A model generated the notes under the pieces. That model searched no databases. It was not told the DNA's origin and worked only from the letters and a program-made list of their open reading frames with translations. This document shows, one piece after another, positions 5,554 through 19,812 of a DNA stretch of 24,464 nucleotides. Position numbers and translations under genes: made by a program. Within the stretch, counting starts at the first letter, position 1. The number at the start of each line of letters is the position of its first letter. The DNA comes from Deltaproteobacteria bacterium (GTDB lineage Bacteria; Myxococcota; UBA727; VGSZ01): NCBI GenBank assembly GCA_043744135.1, contig JAYTVG010000281.1, positions 1-24,464 of the forward strand, given 5' to 3'.

Positions 5554-6693
5554 ATGGACATCGCCGCGTTGGCACTATCAAGCGTGTCGTTGGTGTTTGC
5601 GGTCGGGTTTTGGGCGGTTGCGCGTCGAGAATTGCGCGCGCTCGTGCCGGTCGCAGCGCAGCAGCTCAAAAGCGCGCTGCACGTCGTCATCCCGGCGCGA
5701 AACGAACCGGATATCGCGGTGTGTTTGCGCGCGGTGCTGGCCGACCCCGCAGCGTCGTTGCGTGTCGTCGTCGTCGACGATCGCTCAAGCGACGACACGG
5801 CCGCGCGCGCACAGGCCGTGTGCGACCAGGACAGCCGTGCGCGCGTCGTGCGTTTAACAACCGAGCCCGCCGACGGTGTCTTCGGCAAGCCGCGCGCCCT
5901 GGACGCTGGCGTGCAGGCACTGGACGCTGATGCGCAGCTGTTGTGTTTTTTGGACGCTGACGTGGTGCTCGCGCCCGGTGCCCTCGGTGGCTTGGTGCAC
6001 GCCATGGCCGCGCAGGGCGCAGGTGCGGTGTCTGGCGTCGTGCGCTTGGTGACACGTGGGCTCGTCGAACAGCTGCTGGTACCGACCTTCGCTAGCGTGG
6101 TGATGTCGCGCATGATGCCAACCGCGGTGCACGATGCGACGCATGCCGCGGCGTTTTTAAATGGCCAGCTCATCGTGACCTCACGCGCGGCGCTCGAGGG
6201 CATCGGCGGCTGGCGCGCTATGTCGGGCACGGTGCTGGAAGATGTGGCGCTCGCGCGCAAGCTCAAAGCGCACGGCACGACGTTGCGGCTGTGTGACGTG
6301 CGCGCGCTTGCAGCGACCCGCATGTATACCTCGCTCGCCGACATCGTGGCGGGCTTCAAAAAAAACGCCGTCGCGCTGCTCGGGCCGTGGGCAGGCGTGA
6401 CGGGCGTGTCGGCGCTGGCGTTATCGCTAAACGCGTGGCTGGCAGCAGCGCTTGCCGTGCACGCGATGCGCGACGGCCGCATCACGCTGGCGGTGGTGAC
6501 GCTGGCGTCGGTCGCACTGACGTGTGCCTGCGGCGTGTCGGTGCGTCACCAAGCGCGCGTCGCACGCTGGCCTGCGCTGGTGTTGCCCGTGGCGTACGTC
6601 GTGGTGGCGTGGGTGTTGCTCAGCGCAAGCCTCGGCCACGCCCGCAAGCGTCCGCTGCTTTGGAAAGGCCGCAGCTACCCAAGGGGTCAGTAG
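5554..6693 (+). CDS. Glycosyltransferase family 2, membrane-anchored (CrtQ/HpnB-like lipid or carotenoid glycosyltransferase)
   Basis: VVIPARNE, VVVVDDRSSDDT, GKPRAL, CFLDADV, NGQ, EDVALAR, RMY motifs; N- and C-terminal TM helices; ends WKGRSY. Confidence 0.88.
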   Translation: MDIAALALSSVSLVFAVGFWAVARRELRALVPVAAQQLKSALHVVIPARNEPDIAVCLRAVLADPAASLRVVVVDDRSSDDTAARAQAVCDQDSRARVVRLTTEPADGVFGKPRALDAGVQALDADAQLLCFLDADVVLAPGALGGLVHAMAAQGAGAVSGVVRLVTRGLVEQLLVPTFASVVMSRMMPTAVHDATHAAAFLNGQLIVTSRAALEGIGGWRAMSGTVLEDVALARKLKAHGTTLRLCDVRALAATRMYTSLADIVAGFKKNAVALLGPWAGVTGVSALALSLNAWLAAALAVHAMRDGRITLAVVTLASVALTCACGVSVRHQARVARWPALVLPVAYVVVAWVLLSASLGHARKRPLLWKGRSYPRGQ

Positions 6694-6723
6694 GCGCTAA
6701 AATCGCCGGTGCTTTGCAGCCAT

Positions 6724-6754
6724 AAAAAAACGGGGACGCTGCGAAGCGCCCCCG
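6724..6754 (-). terminator. Rho-independent terminator of the SctF-like gene
   Basis: On the minus strand: ACGGGGGCGCTTCGCAGCGTCCCCG stem-loop followed by TTTTTTT, about 24 nt after the stop at 6778. Confidence 0.85.
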
Positions 6755-6777
6755 TCGTTGGCCGCTTGAATGTCGCG

Positions 6778-7332
6778 CTAGCGGACGTTTGAAATTGAGC
6801 TCTTGGCGGTATCGTGCTTGGTCTTCATAACGTTTGACACGGTGGTGAATGAGCGGTTTTCCATCTGCATCTTTTCCTGCAGCTGCAAGTATTGCAGGTT
6901 GAAGCTCGCCATCATCTCCTGCATGTCCTTGGTCTGATTCAGCATGTCTTGCTGGCTACTGCCCGAAGACTTGGTGCCCGTGTTGCTCGATAGACCGGGG
7001 CCACCCAGCGGAATCCCGTCAGCACCAGACGCGCCTGACGCGCCGCCTGCACCACCACCGCCGCCAACTCCGTAGCCGCCGCTGCTGCCGCCGCCGCCGC
7101 CGCCCAATGAACCTGCAGCGCCGGTGACCGCCGCCGACACCACTGCTGCGCCGGGAACAAACGGCGCCGCGACGCCAATGGCGGCGCCCGCGGTGCCCGC
7201 ACCAGCGGACACGCCGTTTCGGACCTGCGCGCCGAAATCGGTGCGCGGGGATTGGCGCACCGTGGTGCTACCGCTGTCGAGCTGGATCCCACCGCGGGTC
7301 GATCCGTTTCCATCAATGTTTGTGACTGCCAT
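6778..7332 (-). CDS. Putative T3SS needle-subunit (SctF/PrgI)-like protein, 184 aa, with hydrophobic hairpin and Gly-rich N-terminal extension
   Basis: GGAG RBS before ATG 7332. The last 34 aa (LQEKMQMENRSFTTVSNVMKTKHDTAKSSISNVR) align without gaps to the recalled PrgI C-terminal helix (YQSKLSEYNLYRNAQSNTVKVFKDIDAAIIQNFR), with 10 identities including the terminal I-x-N-x-R. Confidence 0.68.
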   Translation of the reverse strand: MAVTNIDGNGSTRGGIQLDSGSTTVRQSPRTDFGAQVRNGVSAGAGTAGAAIGVAAPFVPGAAVVSAAVTGAAGSLGGGGGGSSGGYGVGGGGGAGGASGASGADGIPLGGPGLSSNTGTKSSGSSQQDMLNQTKDMQEMMASFNLQYLQLQEKMQMENRSFTTVSNVMKTKHDTAKSSISNVR

Positions 7333-7444
7333 GGCGAACTCCGTTTCGTTGTGGCGCATGCTGCGTGGCAGGCGCCGAATTTGCTAAAAAGTTCGAGTGT
7401 TAAAAATCCCGGTAGGGGCGCTCAACAGCTCTTTTCAAGTTCGA

Positions 7445-7473
7445 TTATCGCTGGACGGTAGCGGGCGTTGCGC
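7445..7473 (-). promoter_or_regulatory. Bipartite promoter-like motif GCGCAACGC-N13-GCGATAA upstream of the SctF-like gene
   Basis: Plus strand reads TTATCGC (7445-7451), a 13-nt spacer, then GCGTTGCGC (7465-7473). Identical boxes and spacing occur at 18672-18700. Confidence 0.7.
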
Positions 7474-7498
7474 TTGCGGCGTGCGGGATCGCGTCAGA

Positions 7499-7837
7499 TC
7501 AGCCGGTTGACCCAGCGCCCATGCCGGCTTTGGTCGCCAAAAGGTGCGACACCAGCGCCTGCGTCTTGTCGTAGGCTTTGAGCGCGCGTTGTGCAGCCGC
7601 TTTGTCTTTCGGGGATTTGGCGGATTTGGCCAACTGCGCGAGCTGGCTCGAGCGGGCCTTAAGTCCCGCTAACGCCGCTTCGCCGTTTTGCTCGACGACG
7701 GCTTCGATGGCCGGAAACCCTGCCGAGGCCGCAGGTGCAGCAGGGGCGGCCACTTTCGGCCGGCCATCGACGGTCTTTTTGACCGCGTCTTGGATCTTAA
7801 ACGCCTTCATGGCGTCGTTGCGTTTGCCGTCAGGCAT
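7499..7837 (-). CDS. Small basic helical protein, possible YscE/PscE-like needle chaperone
   Basis: GGAG RBS before ATG 7837; overlaps the upstream stop by 8 nt. C-terminal QRALKAYDKTQALVSHL resembles the recalled YscE segment QRESKALESAIAIIHYV. Lies directly upstream of the SctF-like gene. Confidence 0.5.
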   Translation of the reverse strand: MPDGKRNDAMKAFKIQDAVKKTVDGRPKVAAPAAPAASAGFPAIEAVVEQNGEAALAGLKARSSQLAQLAKSAKSPKDKAAAQRALKAYDKTQALVSHLLATKAGMGAGSTG

Positions 7838-8834
7838 GACTGCTCCAAAACCGTGAGAAGCCACCGTACGACAGACCCATGCCAGCGGCCAGCGTCACAT
7901 ACAAGCCAAAGCGGATCTGCAGCTGGCTTTCGACGGTGCGCTGAAGCCCGTACACCACGAGGAGGTAGGCACACAGCACAGTCGAAGCAGCACCGATCAG
8001 CAAGTGCCACAGCGAGGTGCGCCGCGACGCTTGTAGCTGTTCGCGCTGCGACGAGCGCCCCACGCTGCTATCGAGCACGCGGCGCGCCCGCCCCACCAGC
8101 AGCGCCACCGCGGCGCACGCCAGCGCAGCATGCAGCACGCCCCCCGAAACCAGCCCGATTTGAAACGGGTGGGCGCGGTCCGAGATCCACGGCAGCAGCG
8201 TGCCCACCAAGGTGAGCAGCGCCGACAGGAACGTGACCTTGTCCGACGGTTGCCACACCCGCCAGCCCTGGCGCAGATCGCGCAGCAGCTCTTCGACTTC
8301 GCCCGCGACTGCGTCGAGCAGGCTGGGGGCTGCAGGGCTTGGTGCGTGCGGCACCGTGTGGTCGGGTGCTGGGCGGCGCGCGCGACGGCGTTCATCGCCC
8401 GAGGGGTCGTCGCCGATCGGGCGCGGGCGGGCGCGGCGCTCGCGATCGCCCGACGGGTCATCGCCGAGCGGTCGGTTGCGCAAGCGCCGTTCCCCCGACG
8501 GGTCGTCGCCGATGGGGCGGCGCTTGCGATCATCCCCCGAGGGGTCGTCGCCGATGGGGCGGCGCTTGCGGTCGTCGCCGGGCTCGTCAGGACGACGTCG
8601 TGCTTCGCGCTGCGCCGACAGCTCACGCGACATCGCTTCGGATTTTTGTTGGAGCTCACTTTGATGTCGTTGCGCTTGGGCATCGCGCGTCACACCGCTC
8701 GTGCCACGCTCGGGTGGACGCTCGGGCGAACGCTCGGGTGGACGCTCGGGTGGACGCTCGGATGGACGCTCCGGTGGACGCTCCGGTGGACGCTGTGAAG
8801 CGCGGTCCGGGCCTTTTTGCTGCGGCGGAGGCAT
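7830..8834 (-). CDS. Membrane protein with repeat-rich charged N-terminus and about 4 C-terminal TM helices
   Basis: MPPPQQK start. PPER-type repeats and RRPIGDDPSG-type repeats, then TM segments (VTFLSALLTLVGTLLPW; GLVSGGVLHAALACAAVALLVG; LWHLLIGAASTVLCAYLLVVYG; RFGLYVTLAAGMGLSYGG). Confidence 0.75.
   Translation of the reverse strand: MPPPQQKGPDRASQRPPERPPERPSERPPERPPERSPERPPERGTSGVTRDAQAQRHQSELQQKSEAMSRELSAQREARRRPDEPGDDRKRRPIGDDPSGDDRKRRPIGDDPSGERRLRNRPLGDDPSGDRERRARPRPIGDDPSGDERRRARRPAPDHTVPHAPSPAAPSLLDAVAGEVEELLRDLRQGWRVWQPSDKVTFLSALLTLVGTLLPWISDRAHPFQIGLVSGGVLHAALACAAVALLVGRARRVLDSSVGRSSQREQLQASRRTSLWHLLIGAASTVLCAYLLVVYGLQRTVESQLQIRFGLYVTLAAGMGLSYGGFSRFWSSHA
8395..8575 (-). repeat. 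Four copies of the coding repeat unit RP(I/L)GDDPSG(D/E)
   Basis: Plus strand repeats of GG(G)TC(G/A)TCGCCGA with (C/T)GGG(G/C)CG flanks; protein reads RPIGDDPSGD, RPIGDDPSGE, RPLGDDPSGD, RPIGDDPSGD. Confidence 0.85.
8706..8794 (-). repeat. 12-bp tandem coding repeat (PPER/PSER/SPER, about 7 units)
   Basis: Units of GCTC(G/C)GGTGGAC and variants on the plus strand. Confidence 0.85.
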
Positions 8835-15086: not shown

Positions 15087-15177
15087 CGACGCAGTGTAGG
15101 TGATGTCGAAGCGCTGCAACATCCGCCCATGCACGGTTGTGTGCTGTTGGTGCTGCGGGTTTGCTAAGGTCGCGTCC

Positions 15178-17475
15178 ATGTCCACGTACTGCCGCTTCAC
15201 GTTGTCGCTCGCGTTTGTCTGCGTCCAAGCCGGCTGCACCAGCTGCGGGGCTGGGCCGCAACCGTTTGCAGCAGGTGAGGGCGAAGGCGAGGGTGAGGGT
15301 GCGGGCGAAGGTGAGGGTGAGGGTGAGGGCGAGGGCGAGGGTGAGGGTGAGGGCGAACGTGATGCGGGGCCGCCGCCGCTGGATGTGTTCGGCCTGGACG
15401 ACCGCCCGACCAACACCACCTGCACGGCACCGCCACCGCCGCCCGCGGGCACTGGCGAGGTGGCCTTGGTGCAGCGTTGGCCCGACCTGCAAGTGTCGCG
15501 GCCGGTGTTCATGCTGCAAGAGCCTGGCACCAACCAAATCTACGTCGTGGAGCAAGCGGGCCGGTTGGTGCGCTTTGACAAAGACGACACCGCGGTCACC
15601 GTGCCGCAAGAGATGTTGAACATCACCGGGCCTGTCACCTTTGGCGGTGGCGACGGCAGCGAGGACGGCCTGCTGGGGATGGCGTTTCACCCGCAGTGGC
15701 CTGACGTCGCTGACGTGTTCGTGTTTTACACCACCGCTGACGACAGCATCGATCGCGTGGCGCGTTTCCCGCTCGGTGGCGACGGCACCTTTGACGAGAC
15801 CGCGCAGGAGATCGTGCTCGACATCGACGACTTCGCCTCCAACCACAACGGCGGCATGATCCGCTTCGGCACCGACGGCTATTTGTACATCGGCACCGGC
15901 GACGGCGGTGCCGGTTTCGACCCGTTTGAAAACGGCCAAGACGGCTTGAGCCTACTCGGCAAAATGCTCCGCATTGACGTCGACAACCCGCAAAATGGTA
16001 ACGCCTACGGCATCCCGCTGGACAACCCGTTCGTCGGCAACGCTGCGTTTGCTCCCGAGGTGTGGGCGCGTGGTTTGCGCAATCCCTGGCGCTGGAGCTT
16101 TGATGCGTTCACGGGAGATCTATGGGTGGGCGACGTCGGGCAGGTGCGCTGGGAAGAAATCAACATCGTCGAGCGCGGCGGCAACTACGGCTGGGACGTG
16201 TTTGAGGGCACGGAGTGTTTAGATGACACCTCAGGGCCCTCGGGTCCGTGCGATTTGGGCGGCACCAAACCACCGGTGACGACGTATTTTCACGACAGCG
16301 GCCGCTGTGCTGTGGCGGGCGGTAACGTCTACCGCGGCAGCGCCTATCCCGAGTTTGAGGGTAAGTATTTTTTCGGCGACCACTGCTCAAGCGAAGTGTT
16401 CGCGCTGGAATTTGACGGCGAGGTGGGCACCGGGGTGGAGGTCGCCAACAACGGCAACAACGTTGATGCGTTTGGCGAAGACGCGGACGGCGAGCTGTAT
16501 GTCATCTCCACGCCGGGTGGCACCATCGAGCAGATCACGCGATCGACAGACCCCGCCATCGACAACTTTCCGCAGACGTTGTCGGCCACCGGGTGCATGG
16601 ACGCTGTCGACACCACCCAGCCCGGCCCCGGCCTCATCCCGTACACCGTCGCGCACGCGTTTTACTCCGACGGTGCCGACAAGGAGCGCTTCATGGCGCT
16701 GCCCGAGGGACAAAACGCGATCGTCGACGCGACGACGGGCGACATCGACTTTCCTGTCGGCACGGTGTTTGTGAAGACGTTTCGCGTGGCGGGGCAGTTG
16801 GTGGAGACGCGGTTGTTTATCCGCCATTCGCAAGATCAATGGGGCGGCTATTCTTATGAATGGAACGATGCTGGCACCGATGCGACGCTGCTGCCCGCCG
16901 CCAAAAACAAGACGCTCAATAGCGGCCAGACGTGGTCGTATCCCGCGCGCAACGCCTGCCTGACGTGTCACACCGCGGCCGCCGGTCGCAGCTTGGGGCT
17001 TGAGGTGCCGCAACTTAACGGCGGTTTCACGTATCCCTCGGGGGTGTTCGCCAACCAACTCGCCACGCTCGATCACATCGGCGTGCTGAGCTTGCCCGCA
17101 CCTGTCGACACGCTGCCGGTGTTTGCCGCCATTGATGCCGATGGCTTTTCGATTGAGGCGCGCGCGCGCGCGTACCTGCACGTGAACTGTTCGAGCTGCC
17201 ATCGACCCGGCGGCATCGGCCAAGGTCCGTCCGACCTGCGGTTTCAAACGGCGTTTGGCGACATGGCGATCTGCGACCGCACACCGTCGGAGGGCGACTT
17301 TGGCATCGCTGACGCGCGCGTGTTTGCGCCGCAAGATCCGTCACGCTCAATGTTGTCGGTGCGTATGCACCGCCTGGGCGCGGGACGCATGCCGCTGCTC
17401 GGCAGTAACGTCGTCGACGCGGCGGGCGCCGCCTTGGTCGACAGCTGGATCGTGCAAACGACGACGTGCCCGTAG
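15178..17475 (+). CDS. Exported PQQ-dependent sugar dehydrogenase (GSDH/YliI-like beta-propeller) fused to a C-terminal diheme c-type cytochrome domain
   Basis: Signal peptide with Cys, GE repeat. EDGLLGMAFHP, NHNGGMIRFGTDGYLYIGTGDGG, GKMLRIDVD, GLRNPWRWSFD, WEEIN, GGNYGW. Two CxxCH motifs (CLTCH, CSSCH) and RMPLLG. Confidence 0.88.
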   Translation: MSTYCRFTLSLAFVCVQAGCTSCGAGPQPFAAGEGEGEGEGAGEGEGEGEGEGEGEGEGERDAGPPPLDVFGLDDRPTNTTCTAPPPPPAGTGEVALVQRWPDLQVSRPVFMLQEPGTNQIYVVEQAGRLVRFDKDDTAVTVPQEMLNITGPVTFGGGDGSEDGLLGMAFHPQWPDVADVFVFYTTADDSIDRVARFPLGGDGTFDETAQEIVLDIDDFASNHNGGMIRFGTDGYLYIGTGDGGAGFDPFENGQDGLSLLGKMLRIDVDNPQNGNAYGIPLDNPFVGNAAFAPEVWARGLRNPWRWSFDAFTGDLWVGDVGQVRWEEINIVERGGNYGWDVFEGTECLDDTSGPSGPCDLGGTKPPVTTYFHDSGRCAVAGGNVYRGSAYPEFEGKYFFGDHCSSEVFALEFDGEVGTGVEVANNGNNVDAFGEDADGELYVISTPGGTIEQITRSTDPAIDNFPQTLSATGCMDAVDTTQPGPGLIPYTVAHAFYSDGADKERFMALPEGQNAIVDATTGDIDFPVGTVFVKTFRVAGQLVETRLFIRHSQDQWGGYSYEWNDAGTDATLLPAAKNKTLNSGQTWSYPARNACLTCHTAAAGRSLGLEVPQLNGGFTYPSGVFANQLATLDHIGVLSLPAPVDTLPVFAAIDADGFSIEARARAYLHVNCSSCHRPGGIGQGPSDLRFQTAFGDMAICDRTPSEGDFGIADARVFAPQDPSRSMLSVRMHRLGAGRMPLLGSNVVDAAGAALVDSWIVQTTTCP
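15274..15357 (+). repeat. (Gly-Glu)n coding microsatellite
   Basis: GG(T/C)GA(G/A) hexamer about 14 times with one GA unit: GEGEGEGEGAGEGEGEGEGEGEGEGEGE. Confidence 0.95.
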
Positions 17476-17508: not shown

Positions 17509-18531
17509 TTACGCGCTTTTAAACTGCACCGGCAGCAACACACCGCGCGCCTTGAGCTGTTGTTTGACCCACGCTTTGATCGTCGTCGCTGGGTAGGTAC
17601 GGTCCGGGCGGATACCAACCTCGACGCGCGGCCCTTTGACGCGCACGCTCATGACCGCGTCTTCGATGCAGCGGTCGCGTGTGCTCCTTGCTTGCGCGGT
17701 TTTAACCGCCGCTGCAAACGTCGCCACCACGTCTTTCATGGTCGGGGGCGGCACGAACGTGGCGGTGTCGATGACGATGTGACGGGGTTTGACGCCCAAC
17801 TCCGCGCATAGGCTGCGCACGGCGGCTACGATATCAGCGTCGCTGCGCTGGGCGGGCTGGCGCACGCTAACGCGCAGCGCGTCGCCGTCTACGCGCAAAC
17901 CAACAACCTCTTGGTGCGGGTTTGCTGTGCTGCCGGCGCGCGCCATCAGCTGCGCGGCATCAAACAAGCGCTGCGCGTCGGCGCTGCACAGTGGTGGCGG
18001 CGGATCGGCGCGCTTGAGGTGGACGCTGAGTGCAGCACCCCCAGCAGCAGCGATCAGCGGGGCACAGCGCGTGCGCACATCGACGTCGCTCAAGACAGCG
18101 TCCGCGTCGATCACGACCTGCACGGTTTTGGCATCGACAGCTTCGACGTGGCTGATGCCTTCAAGGCGTCGCGCGTCGCTGCGATCGGCGCTGAGCGCGG
18201 CATTGACCTCCGCGGCGACGGCGCGCGCCTCTCCCGTCGTCAATAGCTCCAGTCGAGCGCCTTCGGGCACGCCGCACGCTTGCAGCAGGGCGCGCGTAGC
18301 GTCGCGGATGGCGCCGCGCGAAAACAGCGCATGCGCGTCGATAGTGGCGAGCACAGCGCCGTCGTGCACGTGCAGGCCGCGGATGCAGCGTTGCACCGCA
18401 TCGGGGTCGTTTTTGAAGCTGGTGATGCGCAGCAGCGCCTGCGCGACCGCCGCACGCAAGGTGTGCGGATCGACGGTCACAGCCACTGCGACCGGCCATC
18501 TGCGCTGCGGACTAGGGTGGTTTGTGCCCAT
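17509..18531 (-). CDS. Hypothetical protein with four tandem about 75-85 aa alpha/beta modules
   Basis: Long ORF, probable start ATG 18531. Each module reads helix, strand, strand, helix, strand. Confidence 0.6.
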   Translation of the reverse strand: MGTNHPSPQRRWPVAVAVTVDPHTLRAAVAQALLRITSFKNDPDAVQRCIRGLHVHDGAVLATIDAHALFSRGAIRDATRALLQACGVPEGARLELLTTGEARAVAAEVNAALSADRSDARRLEGISHVEAVDAKTVQVVIDADAVLSDVDVRTRCAPLIAAAGGAALSVHLKRADPPPPLCSADAQRLFDAAQLMARAGSTANPHQEVVGLRVDGDALRVSVRQPAQRSDADIVAAVRSLCAELGVKPRHIVIDTATFVPPPTMKDVVATFAAAVKTAQARSTRDRCIEDAVMSVRVKGPRVEVGIRPDRTYPATTIKAWVKQQLKARGVLLPVQFKSA

Positions 18532-18671
18532 CGCGAGCGACACGCTAGCGCTGTTGAGACGTGTCGTGGCTAAAAACGGCGCGCGCTGGCACACCGGCAA
18601 GCGGATCGCGGGCACCGTAACGCTTGATGTTTACGTGGCTTTGCGGGCGGGTCGACGCCGTACGATCCCGC

Positions 18672-18700
18672 GCGCAACGCGCCGCGCCAGCCTGCGATAA
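18672..18700 (+). promoter_or_regulatory. Bipartite promoter-like motif GCGCAACGC-N13-GCGATAA upstream of the SctI-like gene
   Basis: GCGCAACGC 18672-18680, 13-nt spacer, GCGATAA 18694-18700; ends 35 nt before the ATG. Same as 7445-7473 on the minus strand. Confidence 0.7.
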
Positions 18701-18735
18701 CCTCGCAGTACAGTGTTTTTGCGCAGGAGCATCCC

Positions 18736-19260
18736 ATGGTAGATCCCGTCTCAGGTGGCATCGGCAAAGCCAGCCAACAAATGATGCAAGAGCTCCAAAA
18801 GGAGATGCAAAAAGGCCAAGACCAAGTCGGTAAGCCGGGCTTTAACGACACGATGGCGCAGCAAGTCAACCAGACCCAAGGCGTGCAGCACACGCAGGGG
18901 ATCCAGCCTGTACAAGAAGCGCAAAAGGTCAACGAGGCCACCAAAGCTGCCGACGTTCTGCGCACCGCACAAAGCCAAAGCGTGCAAGGCGTCAACCCGG
19001 ACACCGGCGTCAAGCCGATCGAAAAAAAGGCCGAGTCCAAAGAGGCGGGCCTCAAGGCCGTGCTCAACCAGGTGGTCGACGGACAAAACAAGCTCGACGA
19101 CATCATCAAGATGGCCACCAGCGGCAAGGTGTACGGCAACCAACAGCTGCTGGCGATTCAAGCCTCGGTCTACAAGTTCAGCCAAGAGCTCGATTTGACG
19201 TCGAAGGTGGTGGAAAAAGCCACCAGCGGCGTCAAGCAGACCATGCAGACCCAGGTTTAA
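18736..19260 (+). CDS. Putative T3SS inner-rod protein (SctI/YscI/HrpB2-like)
   Basis: AGGAG RBS. Gln-rich, likely disordered N-terminus. C-terminal QQLLAIQASVYKFSQELDLTSKVVEKATSGVKQTMQTQV matches the recalled SctI/HrpB2 C-terminal pattern (L..Q.......ELx.K...K....V..L). Confidence 0.75.
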   Translation: MVDPVSGGIGKASQQMMQELQKEMQKGQDQVGKPGFNDTMAQQVNQTQGVQHTQGIQPVQEAQKVNEATKAADVLRTAQSQSVQGVNPDTGVKPIEKKAESKEAGLKAVLNQVVDGQNKLDDIIKMATSGKVYGNQQLLAIQASVYKFSQELDLTSKVVEKATSGVKQTMQTQV

Positions 19261-19317
19261 TGCCTGCGGGTTTGCGCCGCGTCGCGCCTCATCGCGCCTC
19301 ATCCAAACTGCGCTGGG

Positions 19318-19812
19318 CTACTGCGCAAACAAACGGCGTAGGTGGGCCTCATCCACCACCGCACCGACCGAAAACACCACGCGCGGGTTGCGCTGAACCT
19401 CAGTGACTTGGTGCTTGACGACGTCAGGGCGAAACAGCAGCGCGTCACCTTCGTCGAAGATCTGCTCGTCACCGTCGAAGTAAAGCACGCCCCCCTGCCC
19501 CGCGAGCAGCAGCGCATTGAACCGCACGTGGTGAAGCTGGTCGGGGACTGGGTCTGTGTGCGCGGGGATCGCACTGCCAACAGGGTAGCGCAGCAGCCAC
19601 GCATCCACCATGAGCGGGTCGCCAAGCGCCAAGCGCGCACGTTTGATCAAGCGCTCGCACGCCAGGTGCTCAAGCACGTCTTTTTTTTCGTAGCCGGTGC
19701 CCTGGCGCCCCGGCCCCCAGCCGCTGTCGTTGCGCGCCACGTTGAGCAACACCACGCGTTCGCGCGGTGTTAAAAACCCCGGCAGGGCACGCGACCACAC
19801 GTCAGCCGCCAC
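19318..19812 (-). CDS. 2-oxoglutarate/Fe(II)-dependent oxygenase family protein
   Basis: LLRYPVGSAIPAHTDP (HxD), GGVLYF, FRPDVVKHQV (distal His), RVVFSVG (2OG-binding Arg). GTG start overlaps the OPT stop region. Confidence 0.82.
   Translation of the reverse strand: MAADVWSRALPGFLTPRERVVLLNVARNDSGWGPGRQGTGYEKKDVLEHLACERLIKRARLALGDPLMVDAWLLRYPVGSAIPAHTDPVPDQLHHVRFNALLLAGQGGVLYFDGDEQIFDEGDALLFRPDVVKHQVTEVQRNPRVVFSVGAVVDEAHLRRLFAQ

Follow-up and report, generated by a model that had tools for sequence, protein, structure and literature searches.

Does a free-standing gene for a 174-residue protein, found on a contig from a sediment metagenome, encode the inner-rod protein SctI of a T3SS (type III secretion system), and what would such a gene be doing away from sctJ? 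An earlier note, made from the letters of the contig, had read it as an SctI/HrpB2-like gene that stands by itself, relocated and equipped with its own promoter. The contig, which in its full length of 24,464 bp is the window analyzed here, is the longest of the 1119 contigs of a fragmented metagenome-assembled genome (4.87 Mb, 86% complete, 64% GC). The features of the window on which our analysis draws are collected in Table 1.

Table 1. Positions of the sctI-like gene, the needle-like gene and associated features in the 24,464-bp window
Feature	Position	Strand	Description
Small E-like gene	7499..7864	-	121 aa, directly upstream of the needle-like gene, in the yscE/cdsE position
Needle-like (SctF-like) gene	6778..7359	-	193 aa, long glycine-rich N-terminal part, SctF-type C-terminus
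Sigma-28-type promoter motif of the needle-like gene	7444..7471	-	GCAAC-N16-CGATAAT, 84 nt before the ATG
Divergent ORF 5′ of the sctI-like gene	17509..18615	-	368 aa, no match in family search
Sigma-28-type promoter motif of the sctI-like gene	18674..18701	+	GCAAC-N16-CGATAAC, ends 34 nt before the ATG
Ribosome-binding site of the sctI-like gene	18725..18729	+	AGGAG, 6 nt ahead of the ATG
sctI-like (inner rod) gene	18736..19260	+	174 aa, ATG start

The gene itself is real, and so are the strong ribosome-binding site and the Gln-rich N-terminus attributed to it before; the C-terminal helix is predicted as well, at low confidence. AGGAG or GGAG with the same spacing was also present in the loci homologous to the sctI-like gene, and the GC content of the third and second codon positions (0.76 and 0.32, respectively) is consistent with coding on the plus strand; antisense ORFs overlapping the gene were without support. 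On its 5′ side, the divergent hypothetical gene was found as described, whereas the convergent 164-aa ORF on its 3′ side, previously called a 2OG oxygenase, gave sub-threshold 2OG-Fe(II)/cupin matches only (E = 0.0012). Neither sctJ nor any other core T3SS gene was found across the window, and the remaining genes of the contig have housekeeping functions (biotin carboxylase, MatE, dnaX, SpoU methylase, a radical SAM enzyme, redoxin, GSDH and an OPT transporter). To this extent the gene is solitary, as had been claimed, yet the needle-like and E-like genes lie on the same contig at a distance of 11.4 kb. The immediate neighbors in the window (the 368-aa, 2OG-like, OPT and 412-aa genes) were conserved beside none of the sctI-like homologues and were therefore discarded as partners. 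Separately, we observed two secreted-looking proteins whose signal region is followed by long (GE)n repeats, encoded at positions 15100–17475 (+) of the window and 6403–8211 (+) of contig C646 of the same genome; one of them is a dehydrogenase of GSDH type, and its C-terminus resembles cytochrome c.

Compared with curated models one sequence at a time, the protein resembles SctI only faintly. It scored 15.4 bits against PF17001 (curated cut-off 32.4, E = 0.026) and 16 bits against NF038054 (curated cut-off 39, E = 0.0096), both below the cut-off and both aligning the last 70 residues with the C-terminal part of the model; no single sequence of the family attained the curated SctI cut-offs of these two models. 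Across an alignment of 73 diverse relatives of the window protein (A2), PF17001 was matched by 56 members (best E = 1.9e-6), the NCBIfam SctI model by 28 and TIGR02497 by five. The current needle model, PF09392, matched none of the 38 + 73 family members searched. Five of the 73 sequences also weakly matched the NCBIfam model CT668_fam (best E = 2.8e-4); CT668 may be a dislocated chlamydial SctI.

For profile–profile comparison, we assembled reference alignments of canonical SctI (A3: YscI, AscI, Photobacterium SctI, MxiI and EscI) and SctF (YscF, AscF, Photobacterium SctF, MxiH and EscF). These were drawn from the annotated records of pCD1, pCP301, Aeromonas and Photobacterium plasmids and the Sakai LEE, because a homologue search with YscI gave just two proteins. 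With hhalign, A2 matched the five canonical SctI sequences with a probability of 89.9% and E = 1.7e-6 over 67 columns (query residues 107–173, running through to the last residue of both), compared to E = 0.12 for the five canonical SctF sequences. The reciprocal control behaved as a needle family should, with the family of the needle-like protein (A5) reaching E = 1.6e-4 against SctF and E = 0.34 against SctI. Five-member references were required, as A2 matched a single YscI (E = 0.087) and a single YscF (E = 0.2) only weakly; a shallow alignment of low diversity (A1) found SctI in the correct register with E = 0.032. When the A2 HMM was run against 48,863 ORFs, MxiI, the rod protein of Shigella, was the best non-self match, and YscI did not appear among the matches with E up to 50. 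Against PDB sequences, the A1 profile returned no SctI and two chance matches to tape-measure proteins (E of about 0.05–0.09). Over the C-terminal hairpin, the profile homology of the family is closer to characterized SctI than to SctF, so that the comparison with SctI profiles suggested in the earlier note came out in favor of the rod.

Synteny settles the SctI identity of the family. In four of the five complete Myxococcota genomes, every family member (six loci) precedes an sctJ of the same strand by <200 bp. Family copies and SctJ-type genes number two and two in Corallococcus coralloides DSM 2259 (G150), two and two in G127, and one and one in each of G086 and G132; the window's genome has one sctI-like copy and one SctJ-type gene. 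The larger cluster of C. coralloides DSM 2259 encodes, in order, a needle-like protein, a TPR chaperone, a FliA-like sigma factor, the sctI-like protein, SctJ, a FliG-like protein, SctL, SctN, SctQ, SctR and SctS, and is collinear with yscF-G-H-I-J-K-L of pCD1. Both C. coralloides copies were named ‘YscI/HrpB family type III secretion apparatus protein’ by the GenBank depositors. A review includes SctI in the make-up of the Myxococcus xanthus T3SS* cluster (PMC10433427), and Abby and Rocha (2012, PMC3459982) count sctI as one of the additions made early to the non-flagellar T3SS. Taken together, the profile match, the PF17001 hits among the relatives, the sctI slot in other Myxococcota and the name given by the depositors support the reading of the window gene as the inner-rod SctI of a myxobacterial T3SS, relocated but belonging to a known family.

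The same family carries a misleading name elsewhere. In RefSeq/PGAP, most Corallococcus members, and also the homologues P0064 and P0082, are called ‘ATP-dependent helicase HrpB’; the proteins so named are 130–190 aa long and have no helicase domain. This naming is a systematic annotation error, and one that the earlier note had anticipated as a confusion of helicase HrpB with HrpB2.

We then asked where the rest of the secretion system is encoded. In the window's genome, a full injectisome core is scattered over many contigs. A tblastn search with Ysc proteins recovered SctV, SctN, SctQ, SctR, SctS, SctT, SctU, SctL and a secretin-like protein, one to a contig, the contigs all being short. 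The sole SctJ-type lipoprotein lies on contig C202, followed by a FliG-like gene. An sctI belonging to the core system, the alternative named in the earlier note, was not found: no sctI-like ORF lies upstream of sctJ on C202, and the genome gave no PF17001-like match besides the window gene. The same separation extends across the order, as the sctI-like gene adjoins sctJ in none of the 21 order genomes that hold both. In G029, which is assembled in 20 contigs, the sctI-like gene, sctJ and sctV lie on three contigs of hundreds of kb, with sctV solitary. Judging from such better-assembled relatives, the dispersal of the T3SS is real and not an assembly artefact. The separation from sctJ noted before thus stands, but ‘unusual’ is too strong a word for it: with no adjacency in any of the 21 genomes and the whole T3SS dispersed, it is a trait of the lineage and not a single relocation event.

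The gene also follows the secretion system in its distribution. All 25 order genomes with a family member have SctV and/or SctJ, and none of the six order genomes without either has one; in seven T3SS-positive genomes, from one family with small genomes, no family member was detectable. Among the relatives in the order, G004–G024 form a family with very small genomes (0.3–3.4 Mb), with a GC content of about 45% in stretches of G009; most of them retain a dispersed T3SS, which suggests host-associated, reduced Myxococcota. Nine other genomes (G028, G030, G031, G032, G034, G035, G002, G003 and G027) encode a flagellar-type FliF of ∼530 aa beside the injectisome-type set, and most of these also have a second FHIPEP protein. 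Myxococcota are known for gliding motility, and a flagellar-type FliF is unexpected in this phylum.

At 174 aa, the window protein exceeds the canonical SctI proteins of A3 (97–125 aa) and has an N-terminal extension of ∼100 aa beyond them. It contains neither Cys nor Trp, and 28 of its residues (16%) are Gln, 19 of them within the first 100. Three parts can be distinguished, namely a conserved N-terminus of 26 aa, a variable Gln-rich linker (approximately residues 27–100) and a conserved C-terminal part (approximately residues 105–174) with a predicted helix–loop–helix; in the family, the first 26 and the last ∼40 residues are near-invariant, while the Gln-rich middle varies. AlphaFold2, run on A1, predicted helices at residues 105–128 and 135–171 that form the C-terminal hairpin, at a low confidence (mean pLDDT 49.8) that made the model too poor for a fold search. 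A complex prediction for residues 100–174 of the rod-like protein with two copies of residues 135–193 of the needle-like protein scored 0.01, a result that speaks neither for nor against their association.

The family comprises >530 near homologues of 160–180 aa and 958 clusters at 50% identity, and is present in 206 of the 251 Myxococcota genomes searched, a tally that includes one unpublished genome (G185), on which nothing else in this analysis depends. Two candidate loci from Chitinophagaceae (L029 and L030) aligned over 19–22 residues only and were taken as chance matches. Within the final 40 codons, 15–27 of 120 nucleotides distinguish homologues from the window gene, but just two to five residues do so, and the last 20 residues are invariant save for one V/I change, with mostly two to five different codons per position. 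The sctI-like gene is under strong purifying selection, and the degenerate copy considered in the earlier note is not what we see. The sequencing runs that contain the lineage are two sediment metagenome DNA runs; no RNA run is listed.

Upstream of the gene, the promoter motif reported before is genuine and conserved. In the window, and likewise in each of the 17 homologous loci that we examined, GCAAC-N16-CGATA(A/C)(T/C) precedes the sctI-like gene, at a distance of 31–103 nt from the start codon. Sixteen of these 17 loci have a 16-nt spacer and the remaining one a spacer of 17 nt (17 of 18 sites with 16 nt when the window is included). The motif was also found ahead of the needle-like gene in the window, in locus L023 and in Corallococcus, as well as ahead of the rod-like gene in the small-genome relative G009. 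No sigma-70-type promoter was found within positions 18550–19450. The consensus of sigma-28 (FliA) promoters is TAAA-N15-GCCGATAA; the −10-like CGATAA of our motif resembles GCCGATAA, whereas its −35-like GCAAC does not match TAAA. The GCAAC-N16-CGATAA promoters are most likely read by the FliA-like sigma factor. In Corallococcus, the motif stands before the needle-like gene and we found no separate copy ahead of the sctI-like gene, so relocation seems to have been accompanied by the gain of a separate promoter copy. A relaxed version of the motif occurs at 12 sites genome-wide, close to the ∼9 expected from a rough chance estimate, and by itself therefore defines no regulon. Three sites of the form CAAC-N16-CGATA(A/C)C, at C68:5987 (+), C534:2421 (+) and C794:8669 (+), lie 16–41 nt before ORFs of 273, 162 and 172 aa, respectively; these ORFs may be more members of the same regulon or secreted substrates, at a site count near chance.

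Some relatives show a module that is split further in the window's genome. The neighbors of the sctI-like gene vary between the 23 homologous loci that we searched, a few of them duplicate records of one contig. Nine loci have a FliA-like sigma gene immediately upstream of it, and in six of these nine the E-like and needle-like genes follow further upstream on the same strand. The compact version, seen in L023, encodes an E-like protein, a needle-like protein, a TPR chaperone similar to SctY/LcrH/CdsG (E of about 1e-8), a 127-aa protein, a FliA-like protein (TIGR02479, E = 9e-50, below the cut-off), a lipoprotein and the rod-like protein. In the window's genome, the E-like and needle-like genes have stayed together on the minus strand of the window, the TPR chaperone and a homologue of the 127-aa protein are encoded on C646, and the FliA-like gene lies on C527. 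The E-like gene, which had no family match, is kept beside the needle-like gene in six loci. In relatives, the needle-like gene lies upstream of the sctI-like gene, and its product is the rod protein's likely partner. At the edge of contig C348 (1–414), we observed a second needle-like paralogue, which is truncated.

The closest known counterparts are the SctI proteins of myxobacteria (AFE06770.1 and AFE06490.1 of C. coralloides, and that of the M. xanthus T3SS* cluster MXAN_2434–2464), which belong to the same family as the window protein. The A2 profile finds these family members with E = 1e-32 to 1e-49. With one Corallococcus copy the window protein shares 44% identity over 143 aa, and with the other 58% over the C-terminal 66 aa. 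They share the long N-terminal part and an SctI-type hairpin ending in ...TQV, and the two kinds of system share needle-like, TPR chaperone and FliA-like sigma partners. Unlike these clustered genes, which lie upstream of sctJ, the window gene sits among unrelated genes, on another contig than sctJ and behind its own promoter. With canonical SctI (YscI/LcrO, AscI, MxiI, PrgJ and EscI; PF17001, NF038054), the window protein shares a C-terminal part of ∼67 residues, a predicted helix–loop–helix aligned end to end, and the character of a small secreted-type protein without Cys or Trp, present in one copy per system and, in clustered relatives, encoded in the sctI slot. It differs from canonical SctI in falling below the curated thresholds, in being ∼60 residues longer, in its Gln-rich N-terminal extension and in its distance from sctJ. 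Moreover, injectisomes are usually under AraC/HrpL-type control, whereas the window gene has a sigma-28-type promoter motif.

Two further systems offer partial parallels. In the dispersed T3SS of chlamydiae, core genes are spread over several loci, with the needle module E-F-G apart from sctJ (Abby and Rocha 2012, PMC3459982). The system of the window's genome likewise has a dispersed core and a needle module away from sctJ in an organism with a sigma-28 factor; it belongs to another phylum, however, and its dispersal goes further, with sctV and sctI each solitary. Flagellar class 3 (sigma-28/FliA) promoters resemble our motif in their −10-like (G/C)CGATAA and fixed spacer. A FliA/WhiG-family sigma gene linked to the target genes is a further common feature, and the control of late axial or filament genes would be another. 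The differences lie in the −35-like element, GCAAC instead of TAAA, and in the putative targets: here these are rod and needle genes of injectisome type, and the genomes have no flagella.

In our view, the window gene very probably encodes a structural SctI that would seat on the export gate, nucleate the needle-like protein and share with it regulation by the FliA-like sigma factor. If YscI, PrgJ and MxiI are a guide, it would leave early through the SctRSTUV gate, and a few of its C-terminal helical hairpins would then settle on the periplasmic side of SctR/SctT. The seated hairpins would provide the first helical turn, on top of which the needle-like protein could polymerize. In clustered myxobacterial systems, sctI appears between the FliA-like sigma gene and sctJ, an arrangement that has been broken up in the window's order, leaving a stand-alone sctI to be transcribed from its own copy of GCAAC-N16-CGATAA, most likely by the FliA-like sigma factor. 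A promoter motif shared between the two genes and read by this factor would keep sctI and the needle-like gene co-regulated. The published picture of the myxobacterial T3SS*, in which needle and secretin are missing (PMC12075869, PMC10433427), speaks against this reading, as it leaves a rod without an obvious connection.

The link to the sigma factor could also be read in another way, with the protein being a secreted regulator that has retained an SctI-type C-terminus, for example a FlgM-like checkpoint whose export frees the FliA-like sigma factor and whose N-terminal 100 residues are responsible for this activity. The position of the gene directly downstream of the FliA-like sigma gene, in nine of 23 loci and in Corallococcus, would fit such a role, as would a sigma-28-type motif driving it; in flagellar systems, flgM is sigma-28-type driven as well. 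Furthermore, canonical SctI has no counterpart of the strongly conserved N-terminal 26 aa and the disordered Gln-rich stretch. However, searches at E up to 1 gave no FlgM or anti-sigma family match, a nearby sigma gene is missing from about half of the loci (the window among them), the most conserved part of the protein is the SctI-like hairpin, and in the clustered systems it is this gene that takes the sctI slot. We therefore consider a regulator with a borrowed C-terminus very unlikely, while a dual role as structural SctI and regulator may exist.

The boundary between rod and needle also needs care, because SctF and SctI are both short helical hairpins, and extreme C-terminal conservation would fit a polymerizing subunit. 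Precomputed labels on the sctI-like homologues indeed name the needle family (PF09392.17), which would make the window protein the major filament subunit of SctF type and leave some other function to the glycine-rich needle-like protein. Yet the same label is attached to a 96%-identical YscI and so cannot separate needle from rod. The hhalign comparison favors SctI (1.7e-6 against 0.12), no member has a current PF09392 match, and the window protein ends in ...KQTMQTQV, not in the SctF-type ...I(I/L)QN(F/I)R. The needle-like gene of the window carries the SctF-type ending instead, and in relatives such a separate protein is encoded upstream, in the F position. A major filament subunit is thus highly improbable. 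Weak FliE matches in two members, and the flagellar set (FliF of ∼530 aa and a second FHIPEP) that some relatives also carry, could be taken to indicate a FliE-like flagellar basal-body protein or a decaying, non-functional remnant. In the window's genome, G029 and G033, however, the gene is kept alongside one FHIPEP and one short SctJ-type lipoprotein, with no FliF, and family members adjoin sctJ, not fliF. Decay is at odds with the strong purifying selection, the intact ORF and the conserved ribosome-binding site and promoter. To us, this pair of explanations has next to no likelihood. A structural SctI thus remains the preferred reading.

The myxobacterial SctI family was known and annotated already, and the window gene is a relocated, promoter-equipped member of it, not a new kind of gene. 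The annotation problem, in turn, is settled: a family of well over 500 proteins, routinely named ‘ATP-dependent helicase HrpB’ or ‘hypothetical’, is the myxobacterial SctI. The locus also indicates that a complete T3SS can have as its only rod gene a functional-looking sctI that stands alone, so that cluster-based T3SS detectors would score such systems as incomplete. With the relocated pieces each keeping GCAAC-N16-CGATAA, a compact and testable regulon presents itself. Going one step further, we entertain as a rather unlikely idea that uncoupling the rod and needle-like genes from the basal body, and placing them under a FliA-like sigma factor, creates a separately timed ‘late’ step, in which the ∼100-residue extension would make the exported SctI a FlgM-like checkpoint signal. 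If this were true, the ‘needleless’ myxobacterial T3SS would build a rod and a short filament after all. Corallococcus and Myxococcus, with the motif before the needle-like gene, offer a cultured entry point for learning if the ‘needleless’ T3SS* assembles a rod and filament.
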